A stretch of DNA of 64,000 nt. It comes from Elusimicrobiota bacterium (lineage in GTDB: Bacteria; Elusimicrobiota; Elusimicrobia; Elusimicrobiales; UBA9959). Below the pieces are notes generated by a model. That model worked only from the letters and a program-made list of their open reading frames with translations, made no database searches and had not been told where the DNA came from. The stretch spans positions 198,705 through 262,704 of the forward strand of contig JAPLKI010000016.1 in assembly GCA_026388155.1 (NCBI GenBank). Reading direction: 5' to 3'. This document shows, piece by piece, positions 18,631-59,810 of this stretch (positions within the stretch are counted from its first letter, which is position 1; every line of letters starts with the position of its first letter). Both the position numbers and the translations under genes were made by a program.

Positions 18631-18680
18631 ACCGGGATTTTAACTATAGGATATACCGTTAAATTTGTAAACTATTACCG

Positions 18681-19196
18681 ATGAAAACCATCTTGAACTA
18701 CAGGATTCGGGTTAACACAGGCTGCGCGGTGCTTTTGTTGGCGCTTCTTTCCCCGGGCGCGCATTGTCAGCAGAAAATTGAAAAACGTCTGACTGGCCTT
18801 GAAGTCAGGGTGGTCAAGGTGGAAAAACGAGTCACCAGGCTTGAAAGCGGAAAAACCGCCCCACGGGCCTCAGATAAAATACCGCCCAAGCCTATAACGG
18901 CGACGTTTATCAAGAAAGAAAATATCATGGGCGGCAACAGGGTGGGCGTGAAGCTTTTTGTGGAACTTGAAAACGTCACGAACCGCCGCTTTGAGTCTTT
19001 CAGCGGCAAGATAGTGTTCATGGACGGCAACGGGCAGTTAATTTACGCTAAAAAATATTCCCGCGAAGAAGTGTTTGAGGGCGGGGAAAGAATAACTCTC
19101 GCCGTGGCCGTCACCGACAGCCGCATGAAGACCTACCTTAAATTACTGAAAGTAAAAGTGATCACTGCCGATTTTACGGAACAGAAATTCAACTAA
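18681..19196 (+). CDS. Secreted hypothetical protein
   Basis: Signal-like N-terminus and a short coiled segment (LTGLEVRVVKVEKRVTRLES). Confidence 0.5.
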   Translation: MKTILNYRIRVNTGCAVLLLALLSPGAHCQQKIEKRLTGLEVRVVKVEKRVTRLESGKTAPRASDKIPPKPITATFIKKENIMGGNRVGVKLFVELENVTNRRFESFSGKIVFMDGNGQLIYAKKYSREEVFEGGERITLAVAVTDSRMKTYLKLLKVKVITADFTEQKFN

Positions 19197-25561: not shown

Positions 25562-26040
25562 TAACTTCCGCAATGAGACCCCCTGCTGTTTAAGCGCGAT
25601 TTATGAAAACTTGGCGGGTGGTTATGTTGGGGGCGGTTGGTGTTAAATAAGTCGCGATTCACTATTTGGAGCGGGTGGCGGGGGAGCTGGGTTAGCAAAA
25701 CCGTCCGGAGGCCGAGACTTGCATAAGCGGCGAGGCCGAGGAACGGAAGGGCGGGCACGGTGAGGTCCGGCTTTAGGCCGTCTGATGGGCATAGCCCGTG
25801 AAACGGCACGGCCATAGGCCAGAGCGAAGCATAATTATGCTTCGCGTCCGGGCCGCAAGGGCGGAGGCGGTTCCCTGCGCAGCAGAACCGCCGAGCCGGG
25901 GTCGCGGAAAACAGCTATGCGGTTTATCCGTGACTGTCCCGACCCTGGTTTTGCGTTCCAGTCGCCCGACAGGACCCGCGAACCCTAAATTTGGCTGCGA
26001 GAACACCCAAAACCCAGCATGCTATCGTCGTGAGGACCTT
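25562..26040. other. Large GC-rich noncoding structured element A
   Basis: No credible ORF. Many hairpins, for example the 22-nt palindrome GCGAAGCATAATTATGCTTCGC at 25825-25846. Three collinear blocks are shared with element B in reverse orientation. Confidence 0.6.
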
Positions 26041-32798: not shown

Positions 32799-32866
32799 TT
32801 TTTCCTGCCTTTGGTGCCGGTGGTCTCTGACGCTGTCATCCGGCCAATACTTGTGTAGGTGCCGTA

Positions 32867-33376
32867 TCAGGGCCTATGGCCGTCGGACGGCCTCCTGTAA
32901 AAAACATTGACCGGGGCAATTGTCTTGCGCATTAATAGTTCGTCATGGCCCCGCACGATAAAATCCGCCAGGCGCCCGCATTGCCGGTAGCCCAGCCGCT
33001 TGTAAAACCTTATGGCTTTTTTATTAAAGGAAGAGACGCAGAGAAAAACGTTGGGCGCGCGCGAGAATATTTTTTCTTCCGCGTGTTCCATCATCTGGGC
33101 GCCCAGTCCCCGGTCGCGGAAGGTCTCTGCCACAAAAAGCGATTGTATATAGCCGCGGAAGGTGCCGTACATGGTTATTATCGCAAGGCCGGCGATCTCA
33201 CGCTCGGAGCGCGCTATGTAAACCTCGCGGAACGGAGCGGTCATGGAATTAAGGCAGGCGCGGTAGCCGCGGCCTAGTTTCCGCCAGGGGTCCGAGGCCG
33301 CCATAAGGCGCGCCGCGCGCTTTAAAACCTGCATGGATGAAGTTTTTGAGATTTTGATCTGGGCTTTAACCGGCAT
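32867..33376 (-). CDS. GNAT family N-acetyltransferase
   Basis: FVAETFRDRGLGAQMMEHAE acetyl-CoA-binding motif. Start at the ATG at 33376. Confidence 0.7.
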   Translation of the reverse strand: MPVKAQIKISKTSSMQVLKRAARLMAASDPWRKLGRGYRACLNSMTAPFREVYIARSEREIAGLAIITMYGTFRGYIQSLFVAETFRDRGLGAQMMEHAEEKIFSRAPNVFLCVSSFNKKAIRFYKRLGYRQCGRLADFIVRGHDELLMRKTIAPVNVFYRRPSDGHRP

Positions 33377-43858: not shown

Positions 43859-46800
43859 CTATTTTCCCCCCTCCGGTTTCATCTCGCCCAGCTCAATGAG
43901 AGCCTGCTTCAGGTCTTTCTCATGGCTGCGGCTTTCAAGTTTGGCCATCAGGCTGTAGGCGCATGGCACCACCAGCAGCGTAAGGAAGGTGGAAAACAGC
44001 ACCCCGCCTATGACCACCAGCGCCATAGGGATGCGGGTTTCCGCCCCCGGGCCAAGGCCCAGCGCCGGAGGAATAGCCGCCGCGATAGTGGCAAAAGACG
44101 TCATCAAAATAGGCCTTAGCCTGATAGGGCAGGCTTCAAGCAGCGCGTCGGTAACGTTCATTCCTTTCTCGCGCCTCCTGTTGTTGGTAAACTCCACCAG
44201 CAGGATGGAATTCTTCTTTACTATACCCATCAGCAGTATCATGCCTATCATGCTGTAGATATTCAGGGACTGGTGCCCGATGAGCAGCGCGATGAAAGCG
44301 CCGGTAATGCTGAACGGCAGCGCCAGAAGCACAGTTACCGGGTGGATAAAGCTGTTGAACTGCGAGGCCAGCACCATGTAGGCCACAAAGATACCGAACA
44401 CCAGCGCCGTGATCAGACTGCCGAAAGAGTCCTGGAAAGTCTGGGAGCTTCCTGACAGCACTATACGGTAACCGTCGGGCAGCAGCTCCTTGGCCTCCTT
44501 CTGCAGCTCGGTCAGCGCCTCGCCCTGCGATACGCCAGGGGCGGGATTTGCGAAAACGCCGATGGCGCGTTCCCTGTTGCGCCGCGAGATTGAAAGCAGG
44601 GTGGGTTTCTCCGTTATCTTCATAACCTCGGACAAGCGTATAAGTTCGCCCCGGTTGTTGCGCACCCAGATCTTGCCGATATCGGACGGGGTCCTGCGAT
44701 CCTTGTCCACCAGGCGGATGCGGATGTCATAGCGCTTTCCGTTCTTCGTGAATTTTCCCACGCGCACGCCGCCTATCATTGAGTTGACGGCGTCGCCTAT
44801 GGAAGCTATGTTCACTCCGCGCGCGGCGGCTTTTTCACGGTCCGGTATCACCTGCACCTCGGGCATACCGGCCTGGTAGTCGGTGTCCACATCCACCATC
44901 TTGCCCGAGTCAGCCATGCGCTTCATCAGCGCCTGGTCCAGCTCGGCGAGCTTATCCCAGTCCGGGCCGCGCAGGCTTATCTCCACCGGATAGCCGCGTT
45001 TGGCTGTGAAGCCGGCCTGCGACGGGTCCTGTATTGAAACCCGGTCCAGCTCCTTTATCTGCTTAAGGGATTTACGCGTGTAAACCATTAATTCCTGCTG
45101 GGTGGGTTTTTTCTTTCCTTTTCCGAGTGCTACGCGGTCAGCCGGCTGTTTGAGCGAAATAAACATCATGCCGCCGTTGACGCTGCCTCCGCCTACGGAA
45201 CCGAAATACCGGTCTATATTCGGCTCTTTCATCGCCCAGGCTTCCACTTTTTTGAACACTGTGTCCGTATATTCAAAAGAAGAGCCTATGGGGGTCTGCA
45301 GGCGCACCATGAACTGGCTTTGGTCCTGCGAAGGCGTAAATTCCATCGGCAGCTTAAGGGCTATCAACAGGGAGCCGGCGAATACCAGCGCCGCGGCCCC
45401 TATGGTCTTCCAGCGGTGCTGCAGGATGCGCCCGAGCAGCCGCTTGTAAAGTTCCGCGACGCGGATAAAAGCCTTGTCCATCCAGATCCCCATGGCGGTA
45501 GTGCGCCCGGAATCCACGAACTGGGAACAGCGCATGGGCGAGAGCGTCAGCGCTTCCAGCAGCGACAGCAGCACCGCGGCCGACATCGTTACCCCGAACT
45601 GGAAGAAGAACTTGCCGATGATCCCTTTCATGAAGATGACCGGCACGAATATCGCGAGTATGGCTATGGAGGCGGCCATGGCCGGGAAGGTTATTTCCCT
45701 CGCTCCCACAAGCGCGGATTTTACACGCCCATAACCCATTTCATTGTACCGCACGATATTCTCAAGCATCATTATGGCGTCGTCCACAACTATGCCTATG
45801 GCGAGCGACAGGCCCAGAAGCGTGAAGGTGTTCAGCGTGAACCCCATGAAATAGAGTATAAGGAAAGCGCCGATGATGGATGTCGGGATGGCCAGCAGCA
45901 CGTTCAGCGTGGAGGACCAGGAGCCCAGGAACAGCCAGCAGACTATCCCGGTCAGAATGGCGGAAAGGATAAGAGTGAAGTTCAGTTCATGTGTGGAAGC
46001 TTCTATAAAGCGCGTGGAATCATTGACCACGGTAAGGTCCATGCCGCTGGGGAGGCCTTTCTGCAGCTCGGCCACCCTTGCGCGCACCGCCTTGGCCACG
46101 GACACGGCGTTCGAGCCGCGCTGCTTCATTACGCCGATGCCCACCGAAAGTTTGCCGTTGGTGCGCGCTATGCGCCGTATATCGTTAAGGCCGTCCTCCA
46201 CCTCCGCCACGTCCTTTATGCGGAAGGTTTTCCAGATGGCGGCCCCGCCGCGCCCGGTTATGACCAGGTTCGCGAATTGTTCGGGTGTGGTGGCCTCGCC
46301 CATCACGCGCACGTTCATTTCCTTGTTGCCGGAGCTGATATAGCCCGCGGGCATCTCGGCGTGCTGGTTGCTCACTGTGTTCATTACATCTTCCACTGTA
46401 AGCTGCTTCGCGTTGAGCTGGTCGGTGTTCACCCAGATGCGCAGGTTGGGGTCCACAAAACCCCCCATGTCCACGTCGCCAACCCCGGCGATGGTGGTAA
46501 ACTTGTCCTTTAGGAAGTCATTGGCGAAGGCCATCAGGTCCTTAAGCGGCCTGTCGCCGGTAAGGGCCACGCGCACGATAGGCTGGTCTTCCGGGTTGGT
46601 CTTGCTTATGGTCGGCGGGTCTATGTCGCGAGGGAGGTCATGCGCCGCCTGCGAGATCTTAGCCTGCACTTCCTGCATAGCCACGTCTATGTCGCGGCCC
46701 AGATCGAATTCTATGGTTATATTGCATTGTCCGCGCTTGGAATTCGAGGAGACGTCCTTGATCCCCTGTATGCTCATAACCACGCCTTCCAGTACGTCGG

Positions 46801-46990
46801 CCACCTGGGTTTCCATAACCTCGGGGGCGGCGCCTTGCAGGGATACGGAAACGTTGACAACGGGGTAGTCCACGTCCGGCATCTGGCTTATACCCATGTT
46901 GGAAAAGCCTATCCAGCCGAAAACAATAAGGCCCAGCATCAGCATCCAGGCGAAAACCGGGTTTTTTATGGCGACGTCTGAAAGTGTCAT
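43859..46990 (-). CDS. RND (HAE1/AcrB-type) efflux permease
   Basis: 1043 aa with 12-TM RND organisation. N-terminus is AIKNPVFAWMLMLGLIVFG. Confidence 0.9.
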   Translation of the reverse strand: MTLSDVAIKNPVFAWMLMLGLIVFGWIGFSNMGISQMPDVDYPVVNVSVSLQGAAPEVMETQVADVLEGVVMSIQGIKDVSSNSKRGQCNITIEFDLGRDIDVAMQEVQAKISQAAHDLPRDIDPPTISKTNPEDQPIVRVALTGDRPLKDLMAFANDFLKDKFTTIAGVGDVDMGGFVDPNLRIWVNTDQLNAKQLTVEDVMNTVSNQHAEMPAGYISSGNKEMNVRVMGEATTPEQFANLVITGRGGAAIWKTFRIKDVAEVEDGLNDIRRIARTNGKLSVGIGVMKQRGSNAVSVAKAVRARVAELQKGLPSGMDLTVVNDSTRFIEASTHELNFTLILSAILTGIVCWLFLGSWSSTLNVLLAIPTSIIGAFLILYFMGFTLNTFTLLGLSLAIGIVVDDAIMMLENIVRYNEMGYGRVKSALVGAREITFPAMAASIAILAIFVPVIFMKGIIGKFFFQFGVTMSAAVLLSLLEALTLSPMRCSQFVDSGRTTAMGIWMDKAFIRVAELYKRLLGRILQHRWKTIGAAALVFAGSLLIALKLPMEFTPSQDQSQFMVRLQTPIGSSFEYTDTVFKKVEAWAMKEPNIDRYFGSVGGGSVNGGMMFISLKQPADRVALGKGKKKPTQQELMVYTRKSLKQIKELDRVSIQDPSQAGFTAKRGYPVEISLRGPDWDKLAELDQALMKRMADSGKMVDVDTDYQAGMPEVQVIPDREKAAARGVNIASIGDAVNSMIGGVRVGKFTKNGKRYDIRIRLVDKDRRTPSDIGKIWVRNNRGELIRLSEVMKITEKPTLLSISRRNRERAIGVFANPAPGVSQGEALTELQKEAKELLPDGYRIVLSGSSQTFQDSFGSLITALVFGIFVAYMVLASQFNSFIHPVTVLLALPFSITGAFIALLIGHQSLNIYSMIGMILLMGIVKKNSILLVEFTNNRRREKGMNVTDALLEACPIRLRPILMTSFATIAAAIPPALGLGPGAETRIPMALVVIGGVLFSTFLTLLVVPCAYSLMAKLESRSHEKDLKQALIELGEMKPEGGK

Positions 46991-48246
46991 TTTTCCTCCA
47001 TGTTAACGGCCGGCCCTCCGCCGGCCACTTCCAGCTGGATACCCGCCAGGCAGGTCTGGGCGTGCGCCTGTTCAAGCCGCAGTTTAGTCTGAAGAAGCGT
47101 ATTCTGGGCATTCAGCACATCCAGGTTGGTCACCAGTCCCAGTGTGTAGTCCCTCGACTGAAATTTTGCGTTCTCGTCGGCCAGCTTAATGGCTTTTCTT
47201 AACGATTCAAGAACGGCTATAGAATGGATCAGTGTGGAATAAGACTGCTTTACCTCCGTGTCGGCCTGGCGTATGGCCAGCTTTAAAGCGAACTCGGCGG
47301 CCGTCTGTTTTGCGGAAGCCTGGTCAATGGAGGCGTCCGTGGAGCCGCCGGTATAAAGAGGTATTTTGAGAGTAAGGACGCCGGCCCAATGTGAATCCTG
47401 ATTGGGAGAAGGACGCTTCAAATAGTAATCCGCGTCCAGGTACAGGGACGGCCAGGCAAGATTTTCAGCTATCTCCGCGTCCAGCCGGGCCGCCTCAAGG
47501 GCTTTGCGCGCGGCCTCCACGTCAAAACGCCGCGCCGCTCCGGCCAGGTACGGATCTATGTGTTGGTTTTCCGGCAGGCGCAGATGGTCAGGCGCGATGT
47601 CCTCATTAAGCCCGGTCAGGAAGCGCAGTTCGAACTGGGCCAGACTTTCCCGGCTCCGCGCGCTTTGGAGATCGGCGTCGTCCGAGGCGAGCTGCGCCTG
47701 GGCGGCCACCACCTCGCTTTCACGGGAGCGGCCTATCTTCTCGCGGTCCTGGAGCTCTTTAATTCTGGAATTACTAACGGCAAGCTGTTCCTGCCGCACG
47801 GAGATCTCCTGCCTGATCTCAACGAGATCTATATACGCCAGCGCCACATCCTGATAAAGCGCCTGCCGGGCGCGGGCGAATTCGAGCCTGGCCGATCCGG
47901 TCACAAGGCCGGCCGCTTTTGCCGCGATATAATCGCGCATGCCGTCGAAGATCGAGTAGCTGAGGCTCACGGCCGACTGGAATTTCCCCGTCTGCGCGGC
48001 ATTGAGCGTTTCCGATGTGTTAAGGTTAAGGGAGGGCAGGAAATACGACTTTATCTGGCGTTCGGCGGCTTCAAGCTGTTTTATGCCTTCCGCGCTTGAG
48101 GCCAGGGTTTCGCTTTTTGCCAGCGTCAGTTTAAAAGCCTGGTCCAGGGATATAGGCAAGCCGGGCGCCGGCGCGGTTGAAAGGTTTTGAGCGTAACCCG
48201 CGGACACTAATAAGGAAAGAAGGAGCGCCAGCAAAAGATGTCTCAT
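46987..48246 (-). CDS. TolC-family outer-membrane efflux protein
   Basis: Signal peptide and duplicated coiled alpha/beta TolC pattern. ATGA overlap with the RND gene. Confidence 0.8.
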   Translation of the reverse strand: MRHLLLALLLSLLVSAGYAQNLSTAPAPGLPISLDQAFKLTLAKSETLASSAEGIKQLEAAERQIKSYFLPSLNLNTSETLNAAQTGKFQSAVSLSYSIFDGMRDYIAAKAAGLVTGSARLEFARARQALYQDVALAYIDLVEIRQEISVRQEQLAVSNSRIKELQDREKIGRSRESEVVAAQAQLASDDADLQSARSRESLAQFELRFLTGLNEDIAPDHLRLPENQHIDPYLAGAARRFDVEAARKALEAARLDAEIAENLAWPSLYLDADYYLKRPSPNQDSHWAGVLTLKIPLYTGGSTDASIDQASAKQTAAEFALKLAIRQADTEVKQSYSTLIHSIAVLESLRKAIKLADENAKFQSRDYTLGLVTNLDVLNAQNTLLQTKLRLEQAHAQTCLAGIQLEVAGGGPAVNMEEK

Positions 48247-48827
48247 TTTTTTCTCCTAATACCGTCAAGATATATTGCAATGACCCTGTCGGTTTTTTCG
48301 CCGGCGCTGAGCGTCCGGCCGGCGCCCCTTGCGTAGGCAAATGAGCCCCTGCAAAGCCCGAAAAGGGCGGAAGCCATGTAAAGCGGGTCTTCAAGCGTGA
48401 CCAGCCCGTCGGCGGCGCATTTTTCAAGTATATCCTTAAGAGCGCCCAGTACCGCCGGCTTTTTTGCCCGCAGTTGCGGCGGGCAGCCGCCGCCGGTTCC
48501 GGGACGTTTTTCCCCCAAAGCGTCCATAAGCCCGGTCTTCCTGGCCAGATGCTCAACTACCGACTTGACGGCGGCGCGAAGAAGCGCCTCGCCGCGCAGG
48601 CCCGAGTCGCGGACCGATTCCAGGTCGGCGACAAAAGTTTTCATTAGGTCGGAGTGAACGGCGGCAAGCAGGGCGTCTTTGCTAGGGTAATAAAGGAAAA
48701 GGGTGCCTTTGGCCACGCCGGCCTCAGCGGCTATGCGGTCCATAGTCGCGCCTGCCGGATCCGAGGCCGCCAGCACCCTGCGCGCGGCCTCCAGTATGGT
48801 TTTTTGTTTCAAAATTTTAACTTTCAT
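48243..48827 (-). CDS. TetR/AcrR family transcriptional regulator
   Basis: N-terminal HTH ILEAARRVLAASDPAGATMDRIAAEAGVAKGTLFLYYPSKDAL. ATGA overlap with the TolC gene. Confidence 0.85.
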   Translation of the reverse strand: MKVKILKQKTILEAARRVLAASDPAGATMDRIAAEAGVAKGTLFLYYPSKDALLAAVHSDLMKTFVADLESVRDSGLRGEALLRAAVKSVVEHLARKTGLMDALGEKRPGTGGGCPPQLRAKKPAVLGALKDILEKCAADGLVTLEDPLYMASALFGLCRGSFAYARGAGRTLSAGEKTDRVIAIYLDGIRRKK

Positions 48828-48883
48828 GCGGTTGCCTTTGTGCGTCTAACCCGAATCCGGCAGTTCAATATGGTTCTCATTGA

Positions 48884-49030
48884 GAAAATCAGGGAACAGA
48901 AATATTGCAGGATTCCCCGCAGTAGCGGGTCGCTGACCAAGCGCTACGCGCGCCAGGTCAGCGAGGGTGTATGCCGCGCGAAGCGCACCTGAGCTCCGCG
49001 AAGGGAAAGTTTTAACTGAAACTTTCAGGC
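48884..49030. ncRNA. Candidate structured RNA motif D, copy 1
   Basis: Aligns to 50582-50731 with compensatory changes in at least four helices. Strand unresolved. Confidence 0.55.
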
Positions 49031-49414
49031 CAAATATGACTGACCGGTCAGTCATAATTATAACACATAGAACCGGAGGGGTTGCAAGCGGTTTTTTGGG
49101 TAATGGTTTTCAGCCCGAAAGCTGCGTTCAACTGCAACTTTCGCCCCAGAGGGGCCGCCCTTTTCCGATGCTGAGTTACGCCGGTGCAAGCAAAATGCGG
49201 AACGAACAGGAATATACACTCAATAATTGCACTATGGCCGTAAAAGGGCGGGGCAACCCAGCCCTTTTGCCCAATGATTCACAAATCATTGGGCAAAAGA
49301 GCTGCCCTTCGGGCGAATCCTTCAACTGAAGGATTCGGGTCAGGCGGGAACAATGCCCGGGGAGGATACATTATTTATAAGGGGAGCAGCCGGCCGAGGC
49401 GGACGGGGTTACGC

Positions 49415-50449
49415 CTATTTATTCAGTATCATCAGCAGAAGCGTTTTGGTAAACCTGCATCTGTCAAATTTCAATACCGTATCCTCCGACATCACCGTCA
49501 CCATGTGGTCCACGCCCGGCAGTTTAATGTAGTCGGAGCCCGGCAGCACGGCGCTTTCCACCGGCACCAGGCCGTCGTTGGCGAGCCCCTGCTTCAGCAT
49601 GTAATCTCTTGGCAGTTCAAGCAGCGTGTCCAGCTTATTAGGTTCATCCTCTTTCCAGGAAGCGAAAGATATCATGTTGACCCCGGATATTATTTCCCGG
49701 ATGGGGCCGCGGTTCGACTGCTGGAACATGGCCCTTTCTCCGGGGGTAAGATTCAGCAGCGAGTCTATTGTCCCGCCGAAATGACCGAGGAGCTTCGCCA
49801 TCGCTTCGGACAGGTATTTATGACCTTTTATATATTCGGCGACCGGAGTGCCGCCAAACGGGGCCTGGAGCGAAATAAACCCGCGCACCCTGGGGAGAAG
49901 GTCCTTATGGACCGTAAGAGCCTGTAAAACGTACATGCCGCCGTCGCTATGGGAAATTATGATAACGGGCTTATCCGAATCTCTTATGTCTTTCGCCGCT
50001 ATTTCCGCGTTGTGCGCGGGCGGCATGGTCGAGTCTACATCCACCACCTTAAACTCCACGCCCATTTCCTTCAGCAGCTTGATCTGATCGTTAAAGTAAG
50101 GCCCTGTCCAGATCTTTTTGCCGAAAATATTTATGGGCTGCACATAGGCCCCGGTAAGGAATCCGCGCACAAGCAGCACTTTGTAATTAGTGAGTTCGGT
50201 TTTTTCCCTTTCACCAAGCTTTAGGTCCGCCGTAGCCCATGTCAGATTGAAATTTTCGGTTAGATCACGGCCCGCTCTTTCGGGTTCGGCCGTAACCGGA
50301 ATCTCTACGGAAGCGGCATTATCGCCGGATAACGCGGTGGTCCGGGCCAGTTCCTGAAAAGACCCTCCCCCCGCGTCCGGGGCGGCGCAGTAAGCGTTCA
50401 ATGATAAAGCGGTCAGAATTAGAACCAACTGCGTTGTGCGGTACATCAT
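49415..50449 (-). CDS. Secreted alpha/beta-hydrolase (lipase/esterase-like)
   Basis: Signal peptide, nucleophile elbow IISHSDGG, and later NDGLV and DHM, candidate Asp and His residues. Confidence 0.65.
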   Translation of the reverse strand: MMYRTTQLVLILTALSLNAYCAAPDAGGGSFQELARTTALSGDNAASVEIPVTAEPERAGRDLTENFNLTWATADLKLGEREKTELTNYKVLLVRGFLTGAYVQPINIFGKKIWTGPYFNDQIKLLKEMGVEFKVVDVDSTMPPAHNAEIAAKDIRDSDKPVIIISHSDGGMYVLQALTVHKDLLPRVRGFISLQAPFGGTPVAEYIKGHKYLSEAMAKLLGHFGGTIDSLLNLTPGERAMFQQSNRGPIREIISGVNMISFASWKEDEPNKLDTLLELPRDYMLKQGLANDGLVPVESAVLPGSDYIKLPGVDHMVTVMSEDTVLKFDRCRFTKTLLLMILNK

Positions 50450-50581
50450 ATGTGCTTATATCATACATCGCGCGTAAACATCGGCCAAGTGAATATAGGC
50501 CCATATGACCCCCATATTATGGCCTATACGGGTTTGGGCCTTTATTATCCTGAATCCTGCAGTCCATTGTGGTTTCCATAG

Positions 50582-50731
50582 AAAAATCAGGTGAACAATA
50601 AAATGCAGGATTCCCCGTAGCAACGGGTCGAAAACCAAGCGCAATGCGCGACAGGTTTTCGAAGGTGTATGCCGCGCGAAGCGCACCTTGAGCTCTGCGA
50701 AAGGGAAAGTTGCAACTGCAACTTTCAGGCT
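50582..50731. ncRNA. Candidate structured RNA motif D, copy 2
   Basis: See copy 1. Located between the satP stop and the lipase start. Confidence 0.55.
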
Positions 50732-50887
50732 ATTGAAGACTGGCGGGCTACTATGATCAGGCGTGAGAAAAAAACAGGGACACCGTTTTTCATCGCTAAA
50801 ACGGTATCCCTTGTTCTTCCAAAAAGGCTCTTTTCAAAAGAGAGCAGCCGCGCCTTCTCACTCGCGCCTGACGCGGGGGCGGCTGAA

Positions 50888-51466
50888 TTACAGCGGCAGG
50901 ACGGTTTTTCCGTAGACTTCGTTCAGTATCTGGGCCAGCGCCGCATACATGGCCGATAACCCGCAGAAGACGCCTTCATAGCCGGCAAATATTTTAACAC
51001 CGCCGCTCCCTGAAAAGTCGCTGAAAGCCAAAAGGAAGAAAAGCGCCGCCAGCGAACCGAAAACAACCCGCAGCGCCCGGCTCAGTTTCAGCGTGCCGAC
51101 GAACATCACGGCCGTGAAAACGCCCCAGACAGTAAGATAACAGCCCATCGCGAAAGCGGAGGGCGCGTCGCCCAGGCCCATTTTCGGGAAAACCAGCAGG
51201 CCGACCAGGGAAAGCCAGAAAAATCCGTAGAGGGTAAACGCGGCGGTGCCGAAAGTGTTTTTCTTCTTCCACTCCATGACGCCCGCTATAACCTGCGCTA
51301 TGCCGCCGATGAATACTCCCATGGCAAGGATCATCGTATCCATGCCGCTGAAGCCCGCGTTATGGATGTTCAGAAGTACGGTGGTCATGCCAAAGCCTAA
51401 AAGCCCCAGCGGGGCGGGATTGGCGGTGGAATCGGTTAAAGTTATAACGGAAGCGGGTTCGGCCAT
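50888..51466 (-). CDS. satP: Acetate/succinate uptake transporter, GPR1/FUN34/YaaH family
   Basis: [18 protein letters not shown] family signature, six TM. Confidence 0.85.
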
Positions 51467-51560: not shown

Positions 51561-53126
51561 CTAAACCTCCATCGCCGACATTTCAGCCTGGGTTTTGATG
51601 TGGCGGGTGCCTTTGAAAAACGCTATAAGAGGCATCGCGAGTATCGCGGTATAGGCCAGCCATCTGAAGCAATCCATGAAAGAGAGCATGACCGACTGCA
51701 CGACCACCGCTTTATAGGCCAGCCCGTAAGCCGCCATAGGGTTGGAAACAAGGCGCCCGACCTGGGCGGACCAGACCTGGAATTGATAACCGTACGGTGA
51801 AATATTGGCGGCCAGTACCGACTGGTGCACCTGCGCCATGCGCGCCTGCATGGTGAACATCAGCGAGATGCCTACGCTCGCGCCTATGTTCCTGAGCAGG
51901 CTGAATATGCCGCTGGCCTGCTGCATATCGGACTGGCGGATGTTAGCCATAGTGAGCGTGGTCAGCGGCACGAAGGTGAAACCCATAACAAGCCCGTTAA
52001 AGAACAACGGAGCCATAATATTCGAGCGGGCGATGCTGAGGTTGAGCCCGGAAAATATCAGCATGGTAATTGCCAGGCCGAGGAAGCCGAAGACTATCAT
52101 GAGCCGGTTCCCGAACTTTGAAACCAGCCTGCTTATTATGAGCATGGATATCATCGAGCCTATTCCGCGCGGCACCATGGCCAGGCCGCTCTGGAAGGCC
52201 GGGTAACCAAGCAGATTCTGCATAAAGATAGGAAGCATGGAGGTGGACCCCATCATTACGGCGCCTTGTATAGCCATGATAGCCGTGCCGATGGCCAGGT
52301 TCCGGCTTTTCAGCAGGCGCAGGTTCATGAACGGGTGCTGCCGCCGCAGTTCCCACCAGGCGAACAGCGGCATGGCCAGCGCAAAGATGAACGTGCCGGC
52401 GCGTATCCACAAGTCGGCGAACCATTCCACATCCTGGCCTTTGTCTATCACCAGCTGGAACGCTCCCAGGCCGATAACCATCAGCGCCAGGCCGAAATAA
52501 TCCACCGTGGCCGCCGTGCTCCGTTTAAGGTAAGGAGGGTCCTCAAGGAACATTTGCTGCATTATCAGCCCGAATATTCCTATCGGCACATTGATATAGA
52601 ATATCCACCGCCAGGAATAATTATCCGTTATCCAGCCGCCGAGTATCGGGCCGATTATCGGCGCCACTATTATGCCCATGCCGTAAGCGGCCATGGCCTG
52701 GGTCCTCTTTTCCTGCGGGAAACTTTCCAGCAGTATGGCCTGCGCCATCGGCTGGAGACCGCCGCCGCCGATGCCCTGCAGTATACGCGCTAGTATCAGC
52801 TGTGGCAGACTGTGCGCCATTCCGCACAGCATTGAAGAAACAGTGAACATAGCCACCGAGATGGCCATATAGCGTTTGCGGCCTATGAACGAGCTGAGCC
52901 AGCCGGAGGCGGCCAGCACTATCGCGCTTGCCACAATATAGCTGGTGAGCACCCACGACACCTCGTGCGTGGAGGCGGACAGCCCTCCAGCTATGTGCGG
53001 GAGCGAGACGTTGGCCACCGAGGTGTCCAGCACCTGCATGAACGTGGTCAGCAGCACGGAGAACGCGACCAGCCAGGGCGAATGGCTGGGCCGCCAGAAT
53101 CCGGGTTGATGACTTTTTGGGTCCAT
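51561..53126 (-). CDS. emrB: MFS DHA2 (EmrB/QacA, 14-TMS) efflux permease
   Basis: MQVLDTSVANVSLPHIAGGL is typical of EmrB-type transporters, 521 aa. Confidence 0.85.
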   Translation of the reverse strand: MDPKSHQPGFWRPSHSPWLVAFSVLLTTFMQVLDTSVANVSLPHIAGGLSASTHEVSWVLTSYIVASAIVLAASGWLSSFIGRKRYMAISVAMFTVSSMLCGMAHSLPQLILARILQGIGGGGLQPMAQAILLESFPQEKRTQAMAAYGMGIIVAPIIGPILGGWITDNYSWRWIFYINVPIGIFGLIMQQMFLEDPPYLKRSTAATVDYFGLALMVIGLGAFQLVIDKGQDVEWFADLWIRAGTFIFALAMPLFAWWELRRQHPFMNLRLLKSRNLAIGTAIMAIQGAVMMGSTSMLPIFMQNLLGYPAFQSGLAMVPRGIGSMISMLIISRLVSKFGNRLMIVFGFLGLAITMLIFSGLNLSIARSNIMAPLFFNGLVMGFTFVPLTTLTMANIRQSDMQQASGIFSLLRNIGASVGISLMFTMQARMAQVHQSVLAANISPYGYQFQVWSAQVGRLVSNPMAAYGLAYKAVVVQSVMLSFMDCFRWLAYTAILAMPLIAFFKGTRHIKTQAEMSAMEV

Positions 53127-59187: not shown

Positions 59188-59728
59188 TAGACAAAAGCGG
59201 GGACTGATGCGGGACAAGCGGCGATATAGTGACCGCAGAGAATACCTTATAGAAGCTGTCAGAAAGCGGAGAAGGAAAATCCGGGAAATGGCGGTGGATT
59301 ATAAGGGCGGCAAATGCCGGCTGTGCGGTTACAATAAGTGCAGCGAAGCGCTTGAGTTTCATCATCTTGACTCTTCCGTTAAAGACTTTGGGATATCACA
59401 CAAGGGATATACCAGAGGCTGGAAAAGGGTCAAAATGGAACTTGATAAATGCGTAATGCTGTGCGCCAATTGTCACAGAGAGGTTCACGCCGGAAAGCAG
59501 CTTCTACGGGAAACCGTAGTTGAAAAACCAGGTGAACTCAGGGAAACCCTTAAAAAATAAGGGCAATCCTGAGCCAAGCCGCGAACAACATCGCGGAAGG
59601 TGCAGAGACTATCCCGAAAGGGAGTACTGTCCTTCGCAGTTAAGGATGGGAAGCGCCTGGGTCCGTAAAGAGCGAGTGTTCCACGGATATGATATAGTCC
59701 AAGCTCTGAAGCAATTCAGAGGCTCTTG
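59188..59728 (+). ncRNA. Group I intron, IC3-like (tRNA-intron type)
   Basis: Follows a U and ends in G. Core blocks CTCAGGGAAACC, GGCAATCCTGAGCCAAGCC and GGAAGGTGCAGAGACTA, plus GAAA- and GCAA-tetraloop hairpins, as in cyanobacterial tRNA-Leu introns. Confidence 0.85.
59207..59560 (+). CDS. HNH homing endonuclease (intron-encoded)
   Basis: CRLCGY...LEFHHLD...N...CVMLCANCHREVH HNH/zinc motif, 117 aa, lies wholly within the intron. Confidence 0.8.
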   Translation: MRDKRRYSDRREYLIEAVRKRRRKIREMAVDYKGGKCRLCGYNKCSEALEFHHLDSSVKDFGISHKGYTRGWKRVKMELDKCVMLCANCHREVHAGKQLLRETVVEKPGELRETLKK

Positions 59729-59766
59729 TAACCGATAGGTTGTAGGTTCGAGTCCTACCCGGGGAG

Positions 59767-59810
59767 AAAAAATTTAGGCCACCTTTAATTTACGGTGGCC
59801 TAAATTTTTT
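59767..59810 (+). terminator. Terminator after the tRNA gene (bidirectional form)
   Basis: AAATTTAGGCCACC-loop-GGTGGCCTAAATTT followed by a T-run. Confidence 0.7.

Follow-up and report, generated by a model that had tools for sequence, protein, structure and literature searches.

Two strongly folding segments of about 180 nt, lying on either side of a hydrolase gene in a 64,000-nt stretch of an Elusimicrobiota genome (assembly GCA_026388155.1, contig JAPLKI010000016.1, positions 198,705 to 262,704; this whole stretch is called the window here), very probably belong to a family of miniature inverted-repeat transposable elements (MITEs); the family inserts with an IS5-like signature, and the hairpins of its interior are conserved to an unusual degree. 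These elements are small and non-coding, carry terminal inverted repeats, are flanked by a target-site duplication of fixed 4-bp length at the YTAR target of the IS5 group, and exist in many dispersed copies; furthermore, three empty sites were found, which establishes a presence/absence polymorphism. An earlier note on the same DNA had proposed a structured non-coding motif, conceivably a cis-regulatory leader, in front of the hydrolase gene and of a TetR-efflux operon.

Both window copies have the canonical form. Copy 1 (48850..49029, plus strand) is 180 nt long and matches the nhmmer model of the family over positions 1-179 (E=1e-52), and copy 2 (50549..50729, plus strand), 181 nt long, matches with E=1e-51; they lie in direct orientation, 1.7 kb apart. 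A repeat search of the window detects the pair as two blocks, 48885-48990/50583-50688 (80% identity ungapped) and 49001-49047/50701-50747, and a gapped alignment of the copies gives a mean column identity of 86%, in agreement with the figure of about 85% first reported. The 24-mer GGTGTATGCCGCGCGAAGCGCACC, found exactly twice in the window where no occurrence is expected, is the most conserved core (48966..48989 in copy 1 and 50664-50687 in copy 2, plus strand), with a GGTG/CACC outer helix around a GCGC-GAA-GCGC hairpin that contains GCGAAGC. The copies do lie where they were initially placed (48884-49030 and 50582-50731), but with limits defined from 40 or more family members the similarity extends further left, to 48850 and 50549. 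The distance from copy 1 to the TetR start is accordingly 22 nt instead of 57 nt, and that from copy 2 to the hydrolase start 99 nt instead of about 130 nt. Comparison of the open reading frames (ORFs) of the two copies is consistent with the statement that none is conserved between them.

Element ends and target-site duplications

Alignment of the family shows that similarity drops to noise exactly at 5'-CCCGAATCCTGCAG... (CCCGAA...) on one side and at ...TTTCAGG-3' on the other. These ends form imperfect terminal inverted repeats, CCCGAATCCTGCAGTTCAA / CCTGAAAAATTCAGTTGAA, which in the canonical element follow the pattern CCYGAA...T.CAGTT.AA; in copy 1 they read CCCGAATCCGGCAGTTCAA on the left and ...TAACTGAAACTTTCAGG on the right. 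The consensus termini match as inverted repeats at 13/19 positions, and the match rises to 16/19 in subfamilies with the right hairpin GAATCCTTC/GAAGGATTC (e.g. copies L097 and L160). The canonical element measures 176-184 nt and its variants 80-294 nt, with no ORF common to the copies.

The 4-bp flanks are identical in 57 of 87 insertions, as against 25.3 expected by permutation, and none of 20,000 permutations in which right flanks were re-paired at random with left flanks exceeded 41. Where the left flank is other than TTAA, 25 of 44 pairs still match exactly (TTAG|TTAG, CTAA|CTAA, TTAT|TTAT, TAAA|TAAA). The flank composition (T69/C15 at position 1, T85 at position 2, A86 at position 3, and A57/G25/T5 at position 4) defines the target-site duplication consensus YTAR, and the commonest duplications among the 57 exact pairs are TTAA (32), TTAG (14), and CTAA (9). 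At the window copies the duplications are slightly decayed, with a 3/4 match in each case: CTAA (48846-48849) and CCAA (49030-49033) flank copy 1, and TTAT (50545-50548) and CTAT (50730-50733) flank copy 2. A 4-bp duplication with the motif 5'-YTAR-3' is known for IS5 (PMC5009759), and IS711, which is related to IS5, likewise targets YTAR (PMC2266754).

A dispersed family in Elusimicrobia

Scanning one genome per species with a 20-nt core as query returned 53 loci, among which 3 are chance matches in unrelated phyla and the other 50 belong to metagenome-assembled genomes (MAGs) of Elusimicrobia. Exact-core matches number 36 in RIFOXYA12_FULL_51_18, 8 in UBA9634, 8 in GWA2_51_34, and 1 in an Elusimicrobiales MAG, so that three MAGs each hold many dispersed copies. 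A scan of metagenomes with the left terminus added 93 further stretches, and a profile search of the 1.05 Mb of DNA thus collected detected 142 copies or fragments, 102 of them with both ends, corresponding to 88 unique insertions. The family is spread within a clade of groundwater and sediment Elusimicrobia. At least 8 copies are truncated by a contig end, and among the matches listed, all 11 short-read contigs that encode exactly the TetR or hydrolase protein of the window stop within elements, which is the usual behavior of assemblers at multi-copy repeats.

No sequence similarity to a curated RNA family, a plasmid, or a phage was detected. Neither copy has a match in Rfam 15, at the gathering score or at E<=10; BLAST of copy 1 against plasmids and phages gave no match, and neither did scans of viral contigs with the terminus and with the core. 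The family also appears not to have been described previously in Elusimicrobia: a full-text literature search found no paper that describes MITEs in this group, the one paper with both terms being a general insertion sequence (IS) survey.

The dispersed copies bear directly on whether the window pair could be the product of a recent local segmental duplication, with differences that preserve the helices by chance, as the earlier note had considered in its refuting case. Two direct copies 1.7 kb apart would fit such an event. However, other contigs and other genomes hold dozens of copies, the two window copies are each flanked by a separate duplication, and the covariation is far above that of the controls, which together leave this explanation with next to no probability.

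Genomic placement, empty sites, and the tetR-efflux leader

With gene neighbors assigned by a simple longest-ORF gene call, the copies are found in intergenic gaps, in either orientation, and beside unrelated genes. Between tandem genes the element is co-oriented in 21 cases and opposed in 16 (p=0.51), and convergent gaps hold 23 copies versus 9 in divergent gaps. At 16 of 94 neighboring gene ends (e.g. at L010, L011, L016, L034, L040, and L049) the stop codon lies inside the duplicated YTAR target; the TAA or TAG stop of the gene being part of the duplicated sequence, insertion regenerates it. This placement pattern fits a target preference combined with purifying selection, and not a dedicated regulatory element.

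Empty sites complete this picture. The sequence ATAA at 25723..25726 (plus strand) of the window is an empty target: the homologous position in the metagenome contig L072 is CTAA and is occupied by a copy of the element, duplicated there as CTAA|CTAA, whereas the window has the homologous sequence without an interruption (25667-25753, 87 nt across the junction, 81.6% identity, E=3e-15). In another contig (L137), an element copy stands 6 nt upstream of a start codon, and the orthologous region of L050 lacks it.

The region around the first empty site deserves a separate mention. Window positions 25660-26020 (plus strand), homologous to L072, are GC-rich and apparently non-coding, and they include about 200 nt (about 25745-25940) more than L072; this extra part has hairpins resembling the modules (GGCCGTCTGATGGGCATAGCCC…GGCCATAGGCC) as well as the palindrome GCGAAGC…GCTTCGC. 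Rfam gave no match for 25660-26020.

The tetR locus itself provides the third empty site. Copy 1 occupies the 5' untranslated region (UTR) of the minus-strand tetR-efflux operon, with the operator on one side and the ribosome-binding region on the other; read in the orientation of the gene, the window has GTTATAAT-TATGACTGACCGGTCAGTCATA-TTTGG|element|TTAGACGCACAAAGGCAACCGC-ATG. The corresponding regions of two orthologous operons encoding TetR, an outer-membrane factor, and AcrB (TetR 81% and 67% identical) read GGTATAAT-AATGACTGACCAGTCAGTCATT-ATTGCAGGCTCGTAAGGCACACACA-GTG and ATAATATA-ATGACTGACCAGTCAGTCATA-TTTAAGCGGAGCTGAACA-ATG. The profile search detects no element in the orthologous operons, one of which keeps an intact TTAA at the insertion site, and in three tetR orthologs (L165, L166, and L167) a TATAAT box and a palindrome stand 18-25 nt from the start codon. 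The intergenic gap before an 88%-identical TetR ortholog is just 126 nt. In the window, this ancestral control region (49036..49062, minus strand) is parted from the gene by copy 1 and displaced by about 180 nt; it comprises a perfect 20-bp palindrome, ATGACTGACCGGTCAGTCAT (49036-49055, minus strand), and a TATAAT -10 box (49057-49062, minus strand). Since both are conserved before orthologous tetR-efflux operons, the palindrome is very probably the TetR operator, overlapping the promoter. Because these operons keep the promoter and operator near the start codon without any element, copy 1 is an insertion into a short tetR 5' UTR and not an ancestral leader. Since the operator that abuts tetR in the orthologs lies between copies 1 and 2, the two copies are independent insertions and the "bracketing" of the lipase gene (the alpha/beta hydrolase) is incidental. 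For the same reason a composite transposon, in which copy 1, the hydrolase gene, and copy 2 would move as a unit, was rejected: the ancestral tetR operator would be inside it. Orthologs of the hydrolase were tried as markers of empty sites and turned out to be uninformative, as they are not syntenic.

In view of these data, the proposal that the motif is a novel cis-regulatory RNA (a riboswitch, a structured leader, or an RNA antisense to the 5' UTRs) controlling the hydrolase gene and the TetR-efflux operon is extremely improbable. It draws on the location of both window copies upstream of minus-strand genes, on a strong fold with covariation support, and on the absence of an Rfam match. Set against this are orthologous TetR-efflux operons devoid of the element, neighboring genes that are unrelated and found in every arrangement, a variable orientation of the element, inverted termini and duplicated target sites as marks of insertion, dozens of copies per genome, and the absence of strand preference documented below; a promoter-like site between copy 2 and the hydrolase start argues weakly in the same direction. 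Like riboswitches and 5' leaders, the element has a conserved, covarying multi-helix fold and, in the window, a 5' UTR location; it differs from them by having no conserved gene association, position, or orientation, no match to a curated RNA family, and no structure specific to the transcribed strand, by its absence from orthologous operons, and by being bounded by transposon ends. What had been considered a conceivable leader is thus a multi-copy mobile element. The bottom strand of copy 1 would nevertheless add about 180 nt of structured sequence to the tetR-efflux leader, and copy 2 lies upstream of the hydrolase gene; any regulatory effect of the window copies would be a by-product of insertion rather than a conserved function.

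One other locus shows a comparable arrangement. At 3315-4905 of contig L015 (the same locus is present in L142), two copies in inverted orientation surround a gene for a semialdehyde dehydrogenase, and TTAA stands at the outer end of each copy; this parallels the bracketed hydrolase gene of the window. The pair probably results from two independent insertions, and it may also be that the gene between the two copies was mobilized together with them.

A covarying and strand-neutral chain of hairpins

Both window copies fold much better than shuffled sequences on either strand (z -5.4 to -6.0). For the family, 44 distinct canonical copies were aligned with MAFFT without regard to structure, and the fold predicted from them by RNAalifold consists of 45 pairs, 19 of which show double changes, as against 7.3 in shuffled alignments. 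Paired cells amount to 97.4% versus 91.9% in shuffles; for both measures, none of 500 shuffles reached the observed value. The covariation score is 0.194 versus 0.090 in shuffles, and pairing falls to 28-54% when the partners are slid. The fold starts with the left terminus paired with an internal complement, followed by a 5-bp hairpin and a helix of 7-9 bp that carries a GC-rich triloop hairpin at its tip; then come the conserved core with the GCGAAGC mini-hairpin, one further helix, and, at the end, a hairpin in which the right terminus forms the outer arm. For helix P3 there are 16 different sequences, 8 of them fully Watson-Crick, and the core hairpin occurs as GCGC/GCGC, as GAGC/GCTC, and, in L089 and L129, with CCC/GGG at 3 of its 4 pairs. 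Covariation is absent only from the helix in which the left terminus pairs with its complement in the interior. The differences between the two window copies that were listed at the outset are all present as described, their preservation of the helices by compensatory change holds over the family, and the long-range GAATCC..GGATTC helix then proposed is real (helix 2, 99% paired).

By contrast, the mild preference for the plus strand that G-T pairs had suggested vanishes over the 44 copies. The mean minimum free energy is -76.5 kcal/mol for the top strand and -76.9 kcal/mol for the bottom strand (mean difference 0.39; Wilcoxon p=0.78), the top strand is the more stable one in 22 of 44 copies, and there are 108 G-U pairs on the top strand as against 122 on the bottom. 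The loop of the core hairpin varies as GAA, GCA, or GTA, giving GCGAAGC, GCGCAGC, and GCGTAGC, plus GCGCAAGC, all of which fit the formula GCGNAGC / GCGNNAGC; GCGNAGC is a type of extraordinarily stable DNA mini-hairpin (PMC13037366, PMC3201870). The GCGN(N)AGC motif was considered as a strand marker and discarded, being present on both strands (the top strand in 80/87 elements and the bottom strand in 50/87). Altogether, a real and strand-neutral hairpin-chain fold is strongly supported.

Length variants and nested repeats

Copies fall into length classes of 80-126, 146-168, 176-184, 190-196, 216-228, and 240-294 nt, which differ by the loss or gain of whole hairpin modules, and the core persists in the shortest deletion variants (80-126 nt). 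The 225-nt class carries an insert of about 48 nt, GCAATACCTGCGTAGGTGCCGTATAAGGGCCTATGGCCATCAGACGGCC, which is found in opposite orientation and at another position in other copies. This insert is made of tandem arrays of hairpins with a 4-bp stem and a TAT loop, the stems of which covary. A solo module of this kind, CCAATACTTGTGTAGGTGCCGTATCAGGGCCTATGGCCGTCGGACGGCC, lies in an intergenic gap of the window (32845-32892, plus strand; 89.6% over 48 nt), and BLAST with the module gives 55 high-scoring segment pairs in 48 of the collected loci. Judging from these sequences, the module looks like a separate small family of repeats resembling repetitive extragenic palindromic (REP) sequences, nested in the element.

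The window contains two further relatives. A second non-autonomous element of 226 nt (49114..49339, minus strand), located in the same intergenic region as copy 1, has termini of the same type, CCCGAATCCTTCAGTTGAA ... GCAGCTTTCGGG, and a perfect CTGA|CTGA duplication; it shares only these termini (about 20-25 nt), and its interior is unrelated. It includes a 21-bp near-perfect hairpin (49259-49304), which is the source of spurious matches to microRNA families in a permissive Rfam search. In addition, the truncated left end of a family member, CCCGAATCCTGTAGTTCAAGATGGTTTTCATC..., lies at 18675..18711 (minus strand; nhmmer model positions 1-37) with TTAA before it.

A modular interior rich in covarying hairpins, GC-rich mini-hairpins with triloops of a kind typical of stable structures in single-stranded DNA, and a separate hairpin repeat of about 48 nt occurring both solo and nested would also suit a REP/REPIN-like or IS200/IS605-derived palindromic element, moved as single-stranded DNA by a Y1 (HUH) transposase (RAYT or TnpA). 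REPs are mobilized by RAYT (Y1) transposases, and the family resembles REP/BIME and REPIN sequences by its short GC-rich hairpins kept by compensatory change, its modularity, and its intergenic location, often just past stop codons. Yet REP and IS200/IS605 elements insert without target duplication and have no terminal inverted repeats, whereas both are clear here, the concordantly varying 4-bp duplication being strongly supported; moreover, single-strand transposition is strand-specific and no strand bias is observed. We therefore regard such an origin as very improbable.

Another reading keeps the mobile element and assigns a function to its structured interior, as an RNA or single-stranded DNA cofactor of mobilization or as a module co-opted by the host (mRNA stabilizer, processing site, or small RNA). 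In its favor, many independent compensatory changes are found in every helix but the terminus helix, the core is nearly invariant across subfamilies and kept in the 80-126-nt variants, the second element type shares only the terminal nucleotides, so that the interior is probably dispensable for terminus recognition, and mini-hairpins of the GCGNAGC type are present (PMC13037366). On the other hand, the strand preference expected of a single RNA product is missing, the mini-hairpin motif is on both strands, no promoter or terminator is evident within the element, and the conservation of the core is partly a matter of ascertainment, since copies were sought with the exact core and those found by profile only vary in it. 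On balance this reading is decidedly unlikely. In a variant of this reading, the hairpin chain would be a functional single-stranded structure under direct selection, either needed for mobilization or repeatedly co-opted by hosts as an orientation-independent module of RNA stability or processing; this idea, which we hold to be unlikely, comes from a core that contains a GCGNAGC mini-hairpin, is nearly invariant, and survives in the shortest deletion variants, and from compensatory changes that arose many times independently. Should it hold, the family would be one of DDE-type MITEs carrying a conserved structured "payload".

Mobilization and relation to known elements

The preferred reading, a MITE family with an IS5-like insertion signature, implies that the elements would be mobilized in trans by a DDE-type transposase making a 4-bp staggered cut at YTAR, with an IS5-like geometry; it is the duplication alone that points to this transposase family. 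The fold would be kept as a property of the element itself, by selection if fold-back DNA or RNA aids persistence or transposition, or alternatively by template switching that corrects palindromes. As the copies are read and replicated in both orientations, selection (for harmlessness or for transposability) or template switching would act on both strands.

Several points weigh against this reading. The duplication is imperfect (3/4) at each of the two window copies, and the covariation of the helices is deeper than a selfish DDE-type MITE obviously needs. The termini of IS5, which we take to be GGAAGG..., are unlike the CCCGAA found here, and no IS5-family transposase with matching ends was found. 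As for the IS5-like step, enzymes of the IS1380 family or piggyBac-like enzymes are presumably still candidates. IS1380 elements have ends starting with CC(C) and duplications of 4-5 bp, and piggyBac elements have TTAA duplications and CCC...GGG ends; by this description alone, the family resembles them in its CC(C) ends and in TTAA being its commonest duplication (32/57 exact pairs), and differs in a target that is YTAR and not strictly TTAA (14 TTAG and 9 CTAA), and no such transposase was found. Finally, no autonomous parent with a transposase was detected in the 1.05 Mb of collected DNA or in the pattern scans of genomes, metagenomes, and viral contigs, which is weak evidence because MAGs often lack multi-copy insertion sequences.

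Candidates for such a parent were rejected one after the other. In L024, the left end that has no partner belongs to a truncated copy without transposase; in L043, the right-end-only copy follows a 492-aa ORF, which was judged from its translation to encode a membrane transporter and hence no transposase; and 20 metagenomic terminus matches without a canonical right end are truncated or other non-autonomous variants. A generic search for CCYGAA...TTCRGG pairs that are spaced by 0.6-3.5 kb and have the same flank on either side returned only the two copies around the semialdehyde dehydrogenase gene.

Among known systems, the family resembles IS5 and IS5-derived MITEs by the 4-bp YTAR duplication (PMC5009759) and by insertions biased to non-coding DNA. 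The element likewise shares many features with bacterial MITEs in general. These include Correia/NEMIS of Neisseria, ERIC of enterobacteria, RUP and BOX of Streptococcus pneumoniae, and Nezha of cyanobacteria. Like them, it is small, non-coding, and multi-copy, has terminal inverted repeats and a short target duplication, is intergenic in either orientation, is predicted to form stable hairpins when transcribed, and has length variants arising by internal deletion or from modules. It differs from them by its 4-bp YTAR duplication (TA for Correia, for example), by an interior in which five or six separate hairpins, rich in compensatory variation, take the place of one long fold-back, and by its Elusimicrobia host; within the reach of the Rfam, plasmid, and phage comparisons, it has no sequence similarity to any of them.

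Neighboring genes and a group I intron

All the genes around the two copies are on the minus strand. The tetR-efflux operon encodes TetR (48243-48827), an outer-membrane factor (46987-48246), and an AcrB-type resistance-nodulation-division (RND) pump (43859-46990). The other genes encode the alpha/beta hydrolase (49415-50449), a GPR1/YaaH-family protein (50888-51466), and a major facilitator superfamily (MFS) transporter (51561-53126). A terminator-like site belongs to the GPR1/YaaH-family gene (50811-50776, minus strand), and copy 2 lies between this site and the hydrolase start.

Elsewhere in the window, the sole Rfam match is a group I intron at 59445-59721 (plus strand, context 59207-59770; 82.9 bits, E=1e-19). 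An ORF at 59207-59560, upstream of the intron and partly overlapping it, has an HNH-like motif in its translation (…CVMLCANCHREVH…), and directly after the intron comes a sequence that resembles a tRNA 3' half (…GGTTCGAGTCCTACCCGGGGAG). No tRNA is detected in the window by ARAGORN, which would be normal for one split by a long intron. From these sequence features, 59207-59770 may represent an Elusimicrobia tRNA gene that is interrupted by an intron and accompanied by a homing endonuclease.

Implications

The recognition of this family removes a false riboswitch candidate, since a strongly folding, covarying, and Rfam-negative motif found in two 5' regions is here a transposon. Screens for non-coding RNAs flag such motifs, and a check for inverted ends, duplicated flanks, and the number of copies would remove similar candidates. 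The depth of compensatory change is unusual for the interior of a MITE, and the family offers a clean data set for the question of what maintains palindromes in mobile DNA, selection or correction by template switching. For uncultivated Elusimicrobia, it represents an abundant and previously undescribed MITE family that fragments their assemblies, and its insertion in the leader of a TetR-controlled RND efflux operon could alter the expression of this operon.

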